Shown: one piece after another, positions 1 to 4,444 of the stretch
Layout: each line of letters starts with the position of its first letter
How positions within the stretch are numbered: position 1 is the stretch's first letter
Source: a virus
Taxonomy: Duplodnaviria; Heunggongvirae; Uroviricota; Caudoviricetes
DNA length: 4,444 nucleotides
Virus record (IMG/VR): IMGVR_UViG_2693429713_000003
Direction: 5' to 3' (one strand)
Notes under the pieces: model-generated
The model's database searches: none
What the model saw: the letters and a program-made list of their open reading frames with translations, nothing else
What the model was told of the DNA's origin: nothing
Position numbers and translations under genes: made by a program

Positions 1-555
1 TTTCACCCGTCAGAATCTGGCGGGGATCCGTCAGTAAAATCAAAACATGATCCGTCAGATAAAAAAACTTCTCGTCCGGACGCTTCGCAACCGGACACGC
101 AGACGGATGAACAGGATTTTTTAACTCGCCATCCTGATGCGGTTGTATTCAGCCCTAAAAAGCGCCAGTGGGGGACGCAGGATGATTTGACCTGCGCACA
201 GTGGCTCTGGAAAAAAATCATCGCCCTGTACGAGCATGCCGCCGAATGTGACGGCGAGGTGGTTCGTCCCAAAGAACCGAACTGGACAGCCTGGGCAAAC
301 GAAATTCGCTTGATGTGTGTGCAGGATGGTCGTACTCACAAACAAATCTGCGAGATGTACAGCCGCGTCAGCCGCGATCCGTTCTGGTGCCGTAACGTGC
401 TCAGCCCGTCGAAGCTGCGGGAAAAATGGGATGAGCTTTCCCTGCGCTTATCGCCGTCCGTCAGCACGTACACCGAAAAACGCGAAGACCCGTACTTCAA
501 ATCCAGTTACGACAACGTGGACTACAGCCAGATCCCGGCAGGATTCAGGGGGTGA
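1..555 (+). CDS. Phage replication-associated protein, 3' portion with DnaT-like (primosomal protein I-like) C-terminal domain; 5' end is outside the window
   Basis: Frame 1 is open from nt 1 to the TGA at 553-555, so the ATG at 187 is probably internal. The C-terminal tail ...DYSQIPAGFRG matches my recollection of the E. coli DnaT C-terminus (...SQIPPGFRG), and an upstream W-x3-A-x2-IRL block also resembles DnaT. Residues encoded by nt 1-180 are a low-complexity charged linker (S/D/K/P/T-rich). Confidence 0.62.
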   Translation, partial: FHPSESGGDPSVKSKHDPSDKKTSRPDASQPDTQTDEQDFLTRHPDAVVFSPKKRQWGTQDDLTCAQWLWKKIIALYEHAAECDGEVVRPKEPNWTAWANEIRLMCVQDGRTHKQICEMYSRVSRDPFWCRNVLSPSKLREKWDELSLRLSPSVSTYTEKREDPYFKSSYDNVDYSQIPAGFRG

Positions 556-557
556 TC

Positions 558-1046
558 ATGAGTCTGTTAAATGACGTTCAGAAATTCATTGAAGCCCATC
601 CGGGCTGTACTTCCGGAGACATTACGGATGCTTTTGCAGGTTACTCACGGCAGCGCGTTCTGCAGTCAGCAAGCAAGTTACGTCAGAGTGGGCGTGTGGC
701 TCACCGTTGTGAAGGAGATACACGCAGACATTTCCCGCGCCTGACTGAGAGAGCGCAGGAGCCGGAACCACAACCAGTTCGTGAAACCAGACCTGTGCGC
801 AATTTCTATGTCGGCACTAACGATCCCCGGGTGATTTTGTGCCTGACCCGCCAGGCTGAAGAACTGGAGTCCAGGGGCTTATACCGTCGTGCTGCAACGG
901 TGTGGATGGCGGCATTCCGTGAAAGCCACTCCCAGCCAGAACGAAACAATTTTCTGGCGCGTCGTGAGCGGTGCTTACGGAAAAGCAGCAAGCGCGCTGC
1001 ATCGGGTGAAGAGTGGTATCTGTCAGGGAATTACGTGGAGGCTTAA
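558..1046 (+). CDS. PerC-like transcriptional regulator with an N-terminal extension
   Basis: ATG at 558 is preceded by AGGGGGTGA (546-554); the ORF track's GTG at 552 is less likely. The C-terminal half contains AEELESRGLYRRAATVWMAA, matching the PerC-family signature (AEELE-x-G-x-YRRAA-x2-W) as I recall it. The stop TAA 1044-1046 overlaps the next ATG (TAATG). Confidence 0.5.
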   Translation: MSLLNDVQKFIEAHPGCTSGDITDAFAGYSRQRVLQSASKLRQSGRVAHRCEGDTRRHFPRLTERAQEPEPQPVRETRPVRNFYVGTNDPRVILCLTRQAEELESRGLYRRAATVWMAAFRESHSQPERNNFLARRERCLRKSSKRAASGEEWYLSGNYVEA

Positions 1047-1699
1047 TGAGTAATAAATATTGCCAGGCGCTGGCGGAACTGCGGAACAAACCAGCCCATG
1101 AACTGAAGGAAGTGGGCGATCAGTGGCGCACGCCGGATAACATTTTCTGGGGAATTAACACCCTGTTTGGCCCGTTTGTTCTGGATCTGTTCACTGACGG
1201 TGATAACGCCAAATGTGCCGCGTATTACACGGCGGAAGACAACGCGCTGGCGCATGACTGGTCAGAACGTCTTGCGGAGCTTAAAGGTGCTGCCTTTGGT
1301 AATCCCCCATACAGCCGCGCCAGTCAGCATGAGGGGCAATACATCACAGGCATGCGTTACATCATGAAGCATGCCAGTGCCATGCGTGATAAAGGTGGGC
1401 GCTATGTTTTCCTGATCAAAGTTGCCACCAGCGAAGTGTGGTGGCCGGAAGATGCAGATCATATTGCTTTTATTCGCGGGCGTATTGGTTTTGAACTGCC
1501 TGCCTGGTTTATCCCGAAGGATGAGAAGCAGGTGCCGACAGGCGCTTTCTTCGCTGGTGCTATTGCTGTTTTCGACAAGACCTGGAAGGGACCGGCAATC
1601 AGCTACATCGGGCGCGATGAACTTGAGGCATGTGGTGAGGCCTTTCTGGCGCAGGTTCGCCAGCAGGCGGAAAAACTGGTCAGGGAGATGGCGGCATGA
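1046..1699 (+). CDS. Phage-type DNA N6-adenine methyltransferase (Dam-like, orphan)
   Basis: ATG at 1046 with GGAG at 1037-1040; the track's GTG at 1013 lacks a comparable RBS. Contains the catalytic motif IV NPPY (..AAFGNPPYSR..) typical of N6-adenine methyltransferases, and a WRTP...LDLFTD N-terminal block as in phage Dam-family enzymes. No adjacent restriction endonuclease gene. Confidence 0.8.
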   Translation: MSNKYCQALAELRNKPAHELKEVGDQWRTPDNIFWGINTLFGPFVLDLFTDGDNAKCAAYYTAEDNALAHDWSERLAELKGAAFGNPPYSRASQHEGQYITGMRYIMKHASAMRDKGGRYVFLIKVATSEVWWPEDADHIAFIRGRIGFELPAWFIPKDEKQVPTGAFFAGAIAVFDKTWKGPAISYIGRDELEACGEAFLAQVRQQAEKLVREMAA

Positions 1700-2022
1700 C
1701 GACGTTAACTCAATGCCAGCAGCAGGTGCTGGATATGCTGATTTCTTATCAGAAAGAACGTGGCTTCCCGCCAACCAATCAGGAGGTGGCAACCATGCTG
1801 GGATACCGTTCAGTGAATGCAGCGGTGGAGCATCTTCGCGCACTGGAGAAAAAAGGCGTCATCACGATAAAGCGTGGCGTGGCCCGGGGCATCACGCTTC
1901 ATACCGCGGTGAAGGATGACGACAGCGAGGCGGTCGGGATTATCCGCTCACTGCTTGCCGGTGAGGAAAACGCCAGGCTGCGTGCAACCCACTGGTTACA
2001 TGAGAGGGGGCTGAAAGTATGA
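1696..2022 (+). CDS. LexA N-terminal DNA-binding domain protein (winged HTH), lacking the S24 peptidase/autocleavage domain
   Basis: 108 aa. Residues 4-68 (LTQCQQQVLDMLISYQKERGFPPTNQEVATMLGYRSVNAAVEHLRALEKKGVITIKRGVARGITL) align closely with my recollection of E. coli LexA 4-68 ([65 protein letters not shown]). No Ala-Gly cleavage site or Ser/Lys peptidase region follows. ATGA overlap with the methyltransferase stop (1696-1699). Confidence 0.8.
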   Translation: MTTLTQCQQQVLDMLISYQKERGFPPTNQEVATMLGYRSVNAAVEHLRALEKKGVITIKRGVARGITLHTAVKDDDSEAVGIIRSLLAGEENARLRATHWLHERGLKV

Positions 2023-2408
2023 AGCTGATTCTGCCTTTTCCACCCAGCGTGAACACCTACTGGCGACACCCCAACAAAGGGGCATTTGCTGGTAAGAGCC
2101 TGATAAGTGCGGCGGGGCGAAAATTCCAGAGCGCGGCGTGCGCAGCAATAGTTGAGCAGTTACGTCGTCTGCCGAAACCAACGTCGGCACCTGCTTCAGT
2201 GGAGATTGTGTTGTTTCCTCCGGATAACCGGATCCGCGATCTGGACAACTATAACAAGGCACTGTTTGACGCCCTGACCCACGCGGGTGTGTGGGAAGAC
2301 GACAGCCAGGTGAAAAGAATGCTGGTGGAGTGGGGACCGGTTATCCCGGAAGGGAAGGTCGAGATCACTATCAGTAAGTACGAGAAACCGGCGGGTGCAG
2401 CCGCCTGA
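2019..2408 (+). CDS. rusA: Crossover junction endodeoxyribonuclease RusA (Holliday junction resolvase)
   Basis: 129 aa. LPFPPSVNTYWRH...RIRDLDNYNKALFDALTHAGVWEDDSQV... matches the RusA family pattern (LPWPPSxNxYYRH...RRRDLDNLxKAxxDALTKAGxWxDDxQV). ATGA overlap with the preceding stop (2019-2022). Confidence 0.88.
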   Translation: MKLILPFPPSVNTYWRHPNKGAFAGKSLISAAGRKFQSAACAAIVEQLRRLPKPTSAPASVEIVLFPPDNRIRDLDNYNKALFDALTHAGVWEDDSQVKRMLVEWGPVIPEGKVEITISKYEKPAGAAA

Positions 2409-2427: not shown

Positions 2428-3237
2428 ATGAATAATCTGATGGTCATTGATGGTATTGAAGTTCGTCGTGATGCTTATGGGCGTTACAGCCTGAACGATC
2501 TGCATCGCGCAGCAGTAGCATCTGGTGCAAATGCCAGAACCAAGGAGCCAGGAAAGTTTCTTTCCAGCCAACAAACTGTTGAACTCGTTCATGAATTGAC
2601 CAACACCCAGAATTTGGGTGTTGACCCGGTGAGTGTGATTCATGGGGGAAATGAACGGGGAACTTATGTCTGCAAGGAACTGGTGTATGCCTATGCAATG
2701 TGGATCAGCCCGTCATTCCATCTGAAGGTGATCCGTACTTTCGACATGGTAACCAGCGCACCGGAAAAATTATCCGGACAGGCTGCTGACAAGATGCAGG
2801 CTGGTGTGATTCTGCTGGACTTTATGCGTCGGGAGTTAAACCTGTCTAACTCATCTGTGCTTGGTGCCTGTCAGAAACTCCAGGAGGCTGTTGGCTTACC
2901 GAATCTGGCACCGCGCTATGCCATTGATGCTCCTGCTGATGCACTCGATGGCTCAAGCCGCCCTACGCTATCATTGAGTGCACTGCTGAAGCAGTATGGT
3001 ATCCGCCTTACGGCTAATCAGGCATATCACCAGATGGTGAAGCTGGGGATCGTCGAACAGCGCGAACGATACAGCCGTACCGCGATTAACAACATCAAAA
3101 AATTCTGGTCGCTGACAGCGAAAGGCTGCATGTTCGGCAAGAACATCACCAGTCCCGCAAATCCGCGCGAGACGCAGCCGCACTTTTTCGAATCCCGATT
3201 CCCTGAGCTGTTAAAGCTGCTCGATACCGTTCATTGA
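2428..3237 (+). CDS. KilA-N domain protein (Roi/antirepressor-like), possibly with a KilAC-like C-terminal region
   Basis: Strong RBS AAGAGGAG (2410-2417) before the ATG at 2428. The N-terminus MVIDGIEVRRDAYGRYSLNDLHRAA...VCKELVYAYAMWISPSFHLKVIRTFD fits the KilA-N consensus. The C-terminal ~130 aa are less certain; a KilAC/Ant-like resemblance is weak. Confidence 0.72.
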   Translation: MNNLMVIDGIEVRRDAYGRYSLNDLHRAAVASGANARTKEPGKFLSSQQTVELVHELTNTQNLGVDPVSVIHGGNERGTYVCKELVYAYAMWISPSFHLKVIRTFDMVTSAPEKLSGQAADKMQAGVILLDFMRRELNLSNSSVLGACQKLQEAVGLPNLAPRYAIDAPADALDGSSRPTLSLSALLKQYGIRLTANQAYHQMVKLGIVEQRERYSRTAINNIKKFWSLTAKGCMFGKNITSPANPRETQPHFFESRFPELLKLLDTVH

Positions 3238-3238
3238 G

Positions 3239-4234
3239 GTGACCGTGAGAGCACTACTGACCCCTGAAATTGCCCCGCGTATGGGGATCGTATTGTTCAG
3301 ACCAGGTTCAGAGCTGATGCCCCTGTTTATGCAGGGGCGTGTCCTGCTGGAGCCTGAGCCGGAGCATTATTCATCTTTCGCCAGTGGTGCCGTTCCCGCG
3401 GCATCACAACCGCTGGCGGATGATCCTGTCGTTCGGGCCGTGTTCCGTAATGAGGCAGTGATTCGTCGTGCTGGTGGGGTGGAATGTCTTGAAAGCTGGT
3501 TACTTCGTGAAAAAGGCTGCCAGTGGCCTCATTCCGACTGGCACAGCGAGAACATGACCACAATGCGACACGCGCCGGGCGCAATCCGTCTGTGCTGGCA
3601 CTGTGATAACCAGCTGCGCGATCAGTTCACGGAACGGCTGGAATCAATGGCAACGGATAACTGTGCCCGGTGGGTGTTATCTGTCGTGCGTCGGGATCTC
3701 GGTTTTAATGATAGTCACGTTGTGACAATGCCGGAACTGTGCTGGTGGCTGGTTCGTAATGACCTGGCGGATGCCTTACCGGAAAGTGCAGCCCGTAAGG
3801 CACTGAGATTACCGAAGCCTGTTGTGCCATCTGTCACCCGGGAAAGTGACCTTGTGCCTTCGGTTCCTGCCACCAGCATCATCCAGGATAAAGCGAAAAA
3901 GGTGCTGGCGCTGAAAGTGGATCCGGAGTCGCCGGAGTCTTTTATGTTACGCCCAAAACGTCGCCGCTGGGTTAATGAAAAGTACACGCGCTGGGTTAAG
4001 ACGCAGCCGTGCGCATGTTGTGGAAAGCCTGCTGATGATGCCCACCACCTGATAGGTCACGGTCAGGGTGGAATGGGTACAAAAGCGCATGACCTTTTTG
4101 TGTTGCCTTTGTGCAGAAAGCATCACGACGAGCTGCATGCGGATACCGTGGTATTTGAAGAGAAGTATGGCTCCCAGTTGGAGCTGATATTTCGTTTTAT
4201 TGATCGTGCGCTGGCAATTGGCGTGCTGGCGTAA
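3239..4234 (+). CDS. DUF968-like protein with C-terminal Cys/His (HNH-like zinc-binding) motif; putative nuclease
   Basis: 331-aa ORF. The C-terminus CACCGKPADDAHHLIGHGQGGMGTKAHDLFVLPLCRKHHDELH resembles the DUF968 signature found in lambdoid prophage Nin regions. A second CxxC (LCWHCDN) lies mid-protein. The start is uncertain: GTG 3239, GTG 3245 (after GAGGTGA) or ATG 3281. Confidence 0.6.
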   Translation: MTVRALLTPEIAPRMGIVLFRPGSELMPLFMQGRVLLEPEPEHYSSFASGAVPAASQPLADDPVVRAVFRNEAVIRRAGGVECLESWLLREKGCQWPHSDWHSENMTTMRHAPGAIRLCWHCDNQLRDQFTERLESMATDNCARWVLSVVRRDLGFNDSHVVTMPELCWWLVRNDLADALPESAARKALRLPKPVVPSVTRESDLVPSVPATSIIQDKAKKVLALKVDPESPESFMLRPKRRRWVNEKYTRWVKTQPCACCGKPADDAHHLIGHGQGGMGTKAHDLFVLPLCRKHHDELHADTVVFEEKYGSQLELIFRFIDRALAIGVLA

Positions 4235-4248
4235 GTGGAGAACTCTAA

Positions 4249-4383
4249 ATGATTAATCCTTCTGAAATTGGCAAAACGGGTGAAATGGTTCGTCTTCGTA
4301 CTCTGGAAAGTATCTGGGTTCAGGGGAAGCTCCGCATGTGGGGGCGTTGGTCTTATATCAGTGGAGGGACTAGCGGTAACTAG
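4249..4383 (+). pseudogene. N-terminal fragment of a putative Q-type late antiterminator, truncated after 44 codons by the IS2 insertion
   Basis: ATG at 4249 with GTGGAG 9 nt upstream. Encodes MINPSEIGKTGEMVRLRTLESIWVQGKLRMWGRWSYISGGTSGN; the L-x2-WG-x-W block resembles the N-terminus of 82/933W-type Q proteins as I recall them (..MVLERWGAWAA..). Its position after rusA/KilA-N/DUF968 is where Q normally sits. The terminating TAG (4381-4383) is the first triplet of the IS2 end. Confidence 0.4.
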
Positions 4384-4444
4384 ACTGGCCCCCTGAATCT
4401 CCAGACAACCAATATCACTTAAATAAGTGATAGTCTTAATACTA
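4381..4444 (+). mobile_element. IS2 (IS3 family) left terminus including the terminal inverted repeat; the element continues past the window end
   Basis: TAGACTGGCCCCCTGAATCTCCAGACAACCAATATCACTTAAATAAGTGATAGTCTTAATACTA matches the IS2 left end (IRL, upstream of orfA/insC) as I remember it. The abrupt change from a coding-like ORF to this sequence marks the junction at about 4380/4381. Confidence 0.82.
4414..4431. repeat. Perfect 18-bp palindrome ATCACTTAAATAAGTGAT inside the IS2 end
   Basis: Read directly: ATCACTTA-AA-TAAGTGAT, where the two 8-nt arms are exact reverse complements. It lies at the inner edge of the IS2 terminal repeat. Confidence 0.75.

Follow-up and report, generated by a model that had tools for sequence, protein, structure and literature searches.

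The question raised by this locus is what role is played by the DUF968-family gene that closes the early operon of a lambdoid Escherichia coli prophage, found in the virus record IMGVR_UViG_2693429713_000003 and analysed here as a stretch of 4,444 nucleotides (the window). A first-pass annotation made from the letters of the window had described its product as a DUF968-like protein with two Cys/His clusters, the C-terminal one resembling an HNH or treble-clef nuclease fold, and had suggested a DNA-processing role from its place behind rusA and a KilA-N gene. This observation and its interpretation are essentially right. The gene is of an ordinary kind, belongs to the YdfU/DUF968 family and is very common in E. 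coli prophages, and its product combines a C-terminal module predicted to be a zinc-stabilised HNH/His-Me finger nuclease domain of the Ref/YbcO type with an N-terminal module that carries a predicted zinc site of its own.

Two-module architecture of the protein

The open reading frame (ORF) is real and extends on the (+) strand from the first GTG at 3239 to 4234 (331 residues), as first annotated, yet that start is probably two codons too early. Since the RefSeq start of a 99.9% identical gene is the second GTG, the N-termini of the aligned homologues all read MRALL or MRVLL, and a GAGG sequence lies 5 nt upstream of this second GTG, the true coding sequence (CDS) is most likely the 329-residue form starting at 3245, two residues shorter than the alternative. 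The GAGG overlaps both the upstream GTG and the stop TGA (3235-3237) of the KilA-N gene. Residues are numbered below in the 329-residue form, the numbering of the first-pass annotation being higher by two. The sequence composition of the gene is unremarkable, and three minus-strand ORFs inside it (3327-3584, 3715-3987 and 3947-4138) were set aside, the (+) frame encoding a strongly conserved protein.

The family named in the first-pass annotation was recovered by profile searches. Pfam DUF968 (PF06147) matched with 269.6 bits and E 1.6e-80 over positions 2-171 of the 171 of the profile (residues 162-328 in the 331-residue numbering), and HNHc_6 (PF16784), a 'putative HNHc nuclease', matched with 29.0 bits over profile positions 123-183 of 204 only, the gathering cut-offs being 27.8 and 26.6 bits respectively. 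These were the only Pfam matches, neither of them to a non-nuclease family, and PHROG 96, 'HNH endonuclease', matched over the full length (E 1.8e-175). No match was obtained to the NinG/Rap profile (PF05766) at E 0.01 or better or to Pfam DUF1364 or NinB, no NCBIfam family was matched, and the PADLOC anti-phage defence models gave 0 families. The annotation 'DUF968 domain-containing protein' has been given to the identical protein thousands of times.

Conservation was followed in an alignment of the protein with 35 homologues of 25-97% identity, retrieved from searches of 5.8 billion proteins and 1.84 billion representatives, all 36 sequences matching DUF968. Despite a mean column identity of only 37%, the Cys/His positions are near-fixed. 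Within the C-terminal motif, C256-A-C-C259 .. H267 H268 .. H272 .. H282 D283 .. C290-R-K-H293 H294 .. H298, the predicted zinc ligands are kept in 36/36 (C256), 32/36 (C259), 33/36 (C290) and 32/36 sequences (H or C at position 293), and the predicted active-site histidines H267, H268, H294 and H298 are each present in 33 of the 36, D283 being invariant. In the AlphaFold model, built without metal, C256, C259, C290 and the H or C at 293 stand at treble-clef positions, on the knuckle and at the junction of strand 2 and the helix. The domain is predicted to adopt the beta-beta-alpha-metal fold of the His-Me finger/HNH superfamily and it displays the hallmarks of that group, a histidine at the end of strand 1 (the general base) and a metal-binding His/Asn on the helix. 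The proposal that the C-terminal CxxC...HH...H...C..HH...H spacing marks an HNH-type, zinc-binding nuclease was therefore sustained by HNHc_6, by PHROG 96 and by the published placement of the family in His-Me finger group 7 (PMC5714182).

Four of the homologues (P0169, P0182, P0192 and P0231) have lost at least one C-terminal zinc ligand and keep the catalytic histidines: C259 is replaced by T or S in all four, and C290 by H, R or S in three, being kept in P0192. This subgroup, short of one or more zinc ligands and with HH..H..H, is the converse of the PdcB clade described below.

The quality of the AlphaFold prediction depended on the alignment supplied, the mean predicted local distance difference test (pLDDT) value being 67.6 with a shallow alignment and 87.0 with a diverse one. 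Because the latter value was accompanied by a predicted template modelling score (pTM) of 0.56, the model suggests well-defined domains whose mutual orientation is uncertain. Its parts are a beta-hairpin with helices (residues 1-86), a beta-beta-alpha unit (104-124), a helical region (130-186), a basic linker (191-244) and a second beta-beta-alpha unit, with strands at 265-268 and 286-289 and a helix at 291-299, after which come two helices. Confidence is lower, with pLDDT about 70, for residues 190-230. In the linker P237 is conserved in at least 90% of the aligned sequences and K238 is invariant.

Among solved structures the best structural match was the P1 nuclease Ref (3PLW), with paired scores of 8.2 / 7.8 over about 80 residues at 25-26% identity. 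The HNH domains of Cap5 (7rwk, 6.0 / 5.9), IscB (9liq, 5.9 / 6.2), McrA (6ghc, 4.9 / 5.0) and GVE2 HNH (5h0o, 4.5 / 4.5) were matched as well, as was YbcO (3G27, 4.9 / 5.9), which belongs to the same His-Me finger group as the protein. Ref was also the best pairwise match among characterised proteins; with the C-terminal 100 residues as query, BLASTP gave E 8e-5 and aligned the C-x2-C, HH and LPLCRxHH motifs. A Foldseek search of BFVD, a collection of viral predicted structures, returned short DUF968-only phage proteins and entries named 'Recombination enhancement, RecA-dependent nuclease', all matching the HNH part and none the N-terminal domain.

The first-pass annotation had regarded some 240 N-terminal residues as lacking a recognisable motif. 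This was too wide, since the DUF968 model starts at about residue 160 and Pfam models leave no more than roughly the first 160 residues uncovered. On the other hand, the second CxxC noted upstream is real and conserved. It corresponds to C117-W-H-C120, kept as C-x2-[CH], and lies 139 residues before C256 rather than about 130. In the predicted unit (strands 104-109 and 112-117, helix 118-124) C117 and C120 are placed at the junction of strand 2 and the helix and are paired with C92 and position 100, which sit on the preceding loop, the knuckle. All four positions are strongly conserved (C92, C117 and C or H at position 120 in 36/36, H or C at position 100 in 35/36), as is D121 (34/36). C81, numbered C83 in the first-pass annotation, lies outside this cluster and is conserved in 3/36 only, and H109, at the position that a catalytic histidine would occupy in this unit, is a histidine in 10/36 only. 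According to the model, the second Cys/His cluster forms a predicted treble-clef-like zinc site of its own and not another active site.

The N-terminal domain is Trp-rich and neutral to acidic (isoelectric point, pI, about 6). No Pfam match was found for residues 55-160 across 30 homologues, and its profile gave nothing meaningful against the sequences of the PDB, the best hit being S100-A9 (E 0.6). The cluster was also considered as a degenerate copy of the HNH domain, and this was rejected: hhalign of the N- against the C-domain profile gave a probability of 0.3% and E 0.22, the topologically equivalent cysteines being paired in the alignment without statistical support. With low confidence, the domain may be viewed as a module in which zinc has a structural part and which serves to target or regulate.

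Table 1. Coordinates of the features of the window and of the parts of the DUF968-family protein.
Feature	Position	Strand	Remarks
O-like replication gene, 3' part	187-555	+	
PerC-family gene	552-1046	+	Pfam PerC E 7.7e-9
Phage Dam methylase gene	1013-1699	+	longest ORF, GTG 1013
108-residue protein, LexA DNA-binding domain only	1696-2022	+	Pfam LexA_DNA_bind E 2.9e-19
RusA Holliday-junction resolvase gene	2019..2408	+	Pfam RusA E 6.1e-15
KilA-N domain gene	2428..3237	+	Pfam KilA-N E 2.4e-22; directly upstream of the DUF968 gene
GAGG Shine-Dalgarno-like sequence	3236..3239	+	read from the sequence; 5 nt upstream of GTG 3245
CDS, YdfU/DUF968-family protein, 329 residues	3245..4234	+	ORF and RefSeq start; stop TAA 4232-4234
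N-terminal domain, residues 1-128	3245..3628	+	beta-hairpin, four short helices, treble-clef-like beta-beta-alpha unit; pLDDT 84-93
Predicted N-terminal zinc site, residues 92-124	3518..3616	+	C92 3518-3520, H100 3542-3544, C117 3593-3595, C120 3602-3604
Helical region, residues 130-190	3632..3814	+	helices 130-151, 162-171, 180-186; conserved PELCWW motif
Basic linker, residues 191-244	3815..3976	+	pI 10.3, 11 K+R, conserved motif DPExPxSFMxRPKxxRW
HNH / His-Me finger domain, residues 245-329	3977..4231	+	
Predicted zinc ligands	C256 4010-4012, C259 4019-4021, C290 4112-4114, H293 4121-4123	+	
Predicted active site	H267/H268 4043-4048, D283 4091-4093, H294 4124-4126, H298 4136-4138	+	
DUF1133 / Q-like late-regulator gene, 5' part, 44 codons	4249..4383	+	Pfam DUF1133 E 6.3e-23, profile positions 1-44 of 176
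IS2 copy, terminal 64 bp	4381..4444	+	tail multi-copy in 4709 E. coli genomes

Described relatives and the proposed mechanism

The family is already named and was placed computationally in the HNH/His-Me finger superfamily years ago. A nuclease function was predicted for YbcO/DUF1364 from its treble-clef fold by Kaur and Subramanian (PMC4999995), and Jablonska et al. (2017) united DUF968, with YdfU named, and DUF1364/YbcO in His-Me finger group 7 on computational grounds, pointed to neighbouring genes for RusA, Q and an antirepressor and suggested a function in recombination like that of NinG and the RecA-dependent nucleases; one relative is called a transcriptional regulator in the same work (PMC5714182). 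The 'DUF968' Orf-HNH fusions of Gram-positive phages to which Curtis et al. referred (PMC4118853) correspond to Pfam HNHc_6 today.

The closest named relative is K-12 YdfU of the Qin cryptic prophage (b1560), which is 57% identical over the full length (E 5e-146), shares the two-module architecture and the Cys/His motifs, and likewise lies directly upstream of the prophage Q gene, ydfT; it differs by a linker insertion of 20 residues. This comparison yields a name and not a function.

Precedents for activity come from more distant proteins. P1 Ref, an HNH nuclease that depends on RecA, binds DNA through an N-terminus that is basic and disordered (PMC4330346, PMC3973344), and it shares with our protein, besides the motifs aligned above, a Ref-like HNH core preceded by a basic segment. 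Ref differs in being 186 residues long, with no folded counterpart of the 190-residue N-terminal domain. YbcO (prophage DLP12 and phage 82) likewise lies next to rusA and before Q, yet it is a single-domain protein, the solved chain having 96 residues, without an N-terminal module. The HNHc_6 protein Gp16 of Staphylococcus aureus phage PhiNM1 was shown in 2026 to be a host-toxic nickase that binds RecA (PMC12817073). Its C-terminal CxxC..H..CxxHH..H motif (CxxC-x8-H...CxxHH-x3-H) has nearly matching spacing, by which the residues mutated in that study, C148, H157, C181, H184, H185 and H189 (PMC12817073), correspond to C259, H268, C290, H293, H294 and H298 of the protein examined here. The N-domain of Gp16 and of phiETA Orf20, in contrast, is NinB/Orf-like (RAGNYA), a fold to which ours is not related by any match to 1PC6 or NinB.

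On these grounds we infer a DNA-processing role, as had been suggested, and consider it reasonably probable that the protein is an active accessory metal-dependent DNA nickase or endonuclease working on phage recombination or replication intermediates. Family membership, predicted fold, motif conservation and operon position are established by the analysis; metal binding, nuclease activity, substrate and partner are inferred from established HNH enzyme chemistry and from the precedents of Ref and Gp16. The gene would be expressed as the closing one of the early-right (nin-like) operon, and in the protein a structural zinc ion would be held by C256, C259, C290 and H293. H268, which ends the first strand, would act as the general base that activates water, and a catalytic Mg2+ or Mn2+ ion would be bound by H294 and H298 on the helix together with H267 and D283. 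Most likely, the basic segment 191-244 would tether the domain to DNA in the manner of the basic N-terminus of Ref, and the N-terminal module (residues 1-190), with a structural zinc of its own at C92, H100, C117 and C120 and no catalytic histidine, would direct or control the nuclease by way of a partner protein or a DNA structure. In lytic growth the enzyme would nick or cleave recombination or replication intermediates alongside RusA. It would be helpful to the phage and not essential, given that the P1 homologue, pdcB, is non-essential.

The clade of PdcB provides one of the points that weigh against this proposal. PdcB itself, homologous over the full length (26% identity, E 2e-40), is encoded at 5001-6044 of the P1 locus, directly upstream of lpa, the late-promoter activator gene, and has been found non-essential by CRISPR interference and insertion mutagenesis (PMC10695390, PMC10067587). 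It is listed as of 'unknown function', and the window protein differs from it in its intact active-site residues. In the PdcB clade (P0188, P0194, P0257 and P1 PdcB) the zinc motif of the N-terminal domain and the C-terminal cysteines are kept and the architecture is whole, and yet the HH pair, H294 and H298 are gone and a loop is deleted. From this loss of the catalytic histidines PdcB is probably not a nuclease, and the retention of the architecture without them indicates, at the level of sequence, that catalysis is not required for the role of this clade. Several further points speak against an active nuclease or against the details proposed. The similarity to solved HNH proteins is weak in sequence (profile against YbcO, E 0.026), the model being metal-free makes the geometry of the zinc sites a prediction only, the insertion of Ref that bears H153, important for its second cut, has no counterpart in our protein, and the lack of an informative match leaves the role of the N-terminal domain a guess. 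In addition, no experimental paper or assay was found for YdfU, YbcO or any DUF968 protein in the literature search, in keeping with the first-pass description of the family as poorly characterised.

Alternative functions

A narrower form of the nuclease proposal would make the protein strictly RecA-dependent, as is Ref, whose cleavage is limited to RecA-bound DNA (PMC3973344, PMC4330346): inactive alone, it would cut DNA within RecA filaments or D-loops and thereby stimulate recombination, or turn the RecA filaments of the SOS response into breaks. The standing of P1 Ref as best structural and best pairwise match, the basic segment before the HNH core as in Ref (PMC4330346), the BFVD matches named 'RecA-dependent nuclease' and the RecA binding of the related Gp16 (PMC12817073) all point in this direction. 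RecA dependence is, however, a biochemical property that is unreadable from sequence, the identity with Ref amounts to only 25-36% over 60-80 residues, the 190-residue folded N-domain is absent from Ref just as the H153 insertion is absent from our protein, and Gp16 cleaves plasmid DNA without RecA (PMC12817073). We therefore hold this version as tentative and, on balance, unlikely.

A second possibility shifts the emphasis to the other end of the protein. The first 160 residues or so, which with the helical region up to residue 190 make up the N-terminal domain, would be an undescribed zinc-binding treble-clef module on which the function of the long YdfU/PdcB family centres. The module may bind a DNA structure or a specific partner from the host or the phage, gating the nuclease or replacing it, and the place of the gene before Q, DUF1133 or Lpa could link the status of replication or recombination to late development. 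The C-[HC]-C-[CH]-D motif of this module is kept even in the P1 PdcB clade with its dead HNH active site. The idea is speculative and appears rather unlikely to us.

Returning to the nuclease proposal, a further variant casts the protein as a host-directed early effector resembling Gp16, whose nicking would damage the host chromosome or condense it, stop host replication and tip the infection towards lytic growth. It draws on the C-terminal motif shared with Gp16 and the HNHc_6 match (PMC12817073), and on the nature of the gene as one of an early operon and dispensable in the P1 homologue (PMC10695390). Since the gene stands at the very end of a delayed-early operon and not among immediate-early genes, and toxicity could be attributed to the protein by analogy only, such a role is decidedly unlikely.

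Catalysis may also be secondary altogether, the protein being mainly a zinc-finger regulator that binds DNA or protein, for example in late transcription or replication, with the HNH fold as a binding scaffold. The PdcB clade, which preserves the architecture and both zinc motifs without the catalytic histidines, would fit this role, as would the fact that the gene always abuts a late regulator (Q-like in the window, SfII, HannyBb and Qin; lpa in P1), the label 'antitermination protein Q' in some phage records and the relative termed a transcriptional regulator (PMC5714182). Against it, an HH pair, H294 and H298 intact in 33/36 sequences together with an invariant D283 are hard to explain without catalysis. 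Moreover, neither the protein nor its homologues match a Pfam profile of a Q or regulator family, a separate Q-like gene follows, and the 'Q' labels seem to have been carried over from that neighbour, all of which renders a mainly regulatory role improbable.

Finally, a selfish homing HNH endonuclease, or an HNH partner of terminase for cos cleavage, roles which are frequent for phage HNH domains (PMC12817073), is hardly credible for a gene with a syntenic early-operon position across lambdoid phages, far from the packaging genes, with no intron or intein context and a median of one copy per genome, the more so as the prophage of E. coli Ecol_545 has a separate HNH gene beside its P27-family small terminase gene.

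Prophage setting, distribution and significance

The neighbourhood claimed in the first-pass annotation was confirmed by Pfam matches: with genes read from left to right on the (+) strand, the window covers the early-right (nin-like) region of a lambdoid, e14/SfII-like E. coli prophage, the DUF968 gene following RusA and KilA-N genes and preceding a late regulator (Table 1). Adjacent genes overlap by 4 nt, the start lying on the previous stop, at 552-555, 1696-1699 and 2019-2022, and the gaps are 7 nt between the KilA-N and DUF968 genes and 14 nt between the latter and the Q-like gene. Such overlaps and short gaps are consistent with one translationally coupled operon. Between 2300 and 4444, promoter-like sites (3 found against 1.9 expected) and terminator-like sites (4 against 2.1) occurred at chance level, giving no evidence of an internal promoter or terminator, and an Rfam search of the window found nothing.

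The gene order is common to the icd-adjacent prophage of E. coli Ecol_545 (NZ_CP018976), with 99.8% identity. There the Q-like gene is intact (579 bp) and is followed by lysis and packaging genes. In the window, homology with NZ_CP018976 ends at 4380 and the Q-like gene, which also matches PHROG 753 'anti-termination protein Q-like', is cut after 44 codons by IS2, whose end supplies the stop TAG (4381-4383). In NZ_CP068041 the same tail is next to an 'IS3-like element IS2 family transposase' gene located in a split usher gene. Because IS2 truncates the late regulator, the present prophage copy is probably without late-gene activation and cryptic.

Further upstream, the PerC-family transcriptional-activator homologue between the replication gene and the Dam methylase gene is called yfdN in some genomes. 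The start of the Dam methylase gene is uncertain, the RefSeq start of a 99.8% identical gene being the equivalent of 1046 instead of the GTG of the longest ORF. The LexA-domain protein has no S24 peptidase domain and, judging from its sequence, could be an uncleavable SOS-box binder encoded in the phage early operon.

A nucleotide search found at least 80% of the length of the DUF968 gene in 2363 of 5426 complete E. coli genomes, with a median of one copy. Copies 95-98% identical occur in functional phages, namely Shigella phage SfII, cdtI, Ayreon and phages that convert to Stx2a, Stx2c or Stx2k; those of SfII, cdtI and mEp460 (record mEp460_4F5) are 97-98% identical. More distant ones are found in phages of Klebsiella, Yersinia, Edwardsiella, Vibrio and Cronobacter, and further homologues in Salmonella phage ST64B and in P1. 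What appears to be a frameshift has divided the gene of ST64B (AY055382.1) into sb47 and sb48. In SfII, HannyBb, K-12 Qin and the Ecol_545 prophage the DUF968 gene immediately precedes the Q-like gene. A homologue of 39% identity has RusA, DNA methylase and antirepressor genes nearby, and distant homologues are found in the early regions of temperate phages, some after cI, cro, cII and replication genes. Homologues in LR595868.1, LR597642.1 and LR597641.1 (mEp460 and Evi records) carry the label 'Phage antitermination protein Q'. This identity was considered and rejected on account of the missing Q-family profile match and the separate Q-like gene downstream, and the label is probably a mis-annotation.

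Specialists would not be surprised by a nuclease prediction, which has stood in the literature since 2016-2017. Two modest additions are made here: a conserved, predicted treble-clef-like zinc site in an N-terminal domain that has no Pfam family or solved structure, and the recognition of P1 PdcB as a full-length family member that is, by its sequence, apparently nuclease-dead and retains the N-terminal domain. The family is very common, and K-12 YdfU still counts as one of the uncharacterised y-genes. If its members are nucleases like Ref or Gp16, they could have a bearing on how prophages recombine and become mosaic, and on killing in the course of the SOS response, for which the phage-antibiotic synergy that Ref underlies offers a parallel (PMC4713147); a programmable nuclease tool could also be derived from them.

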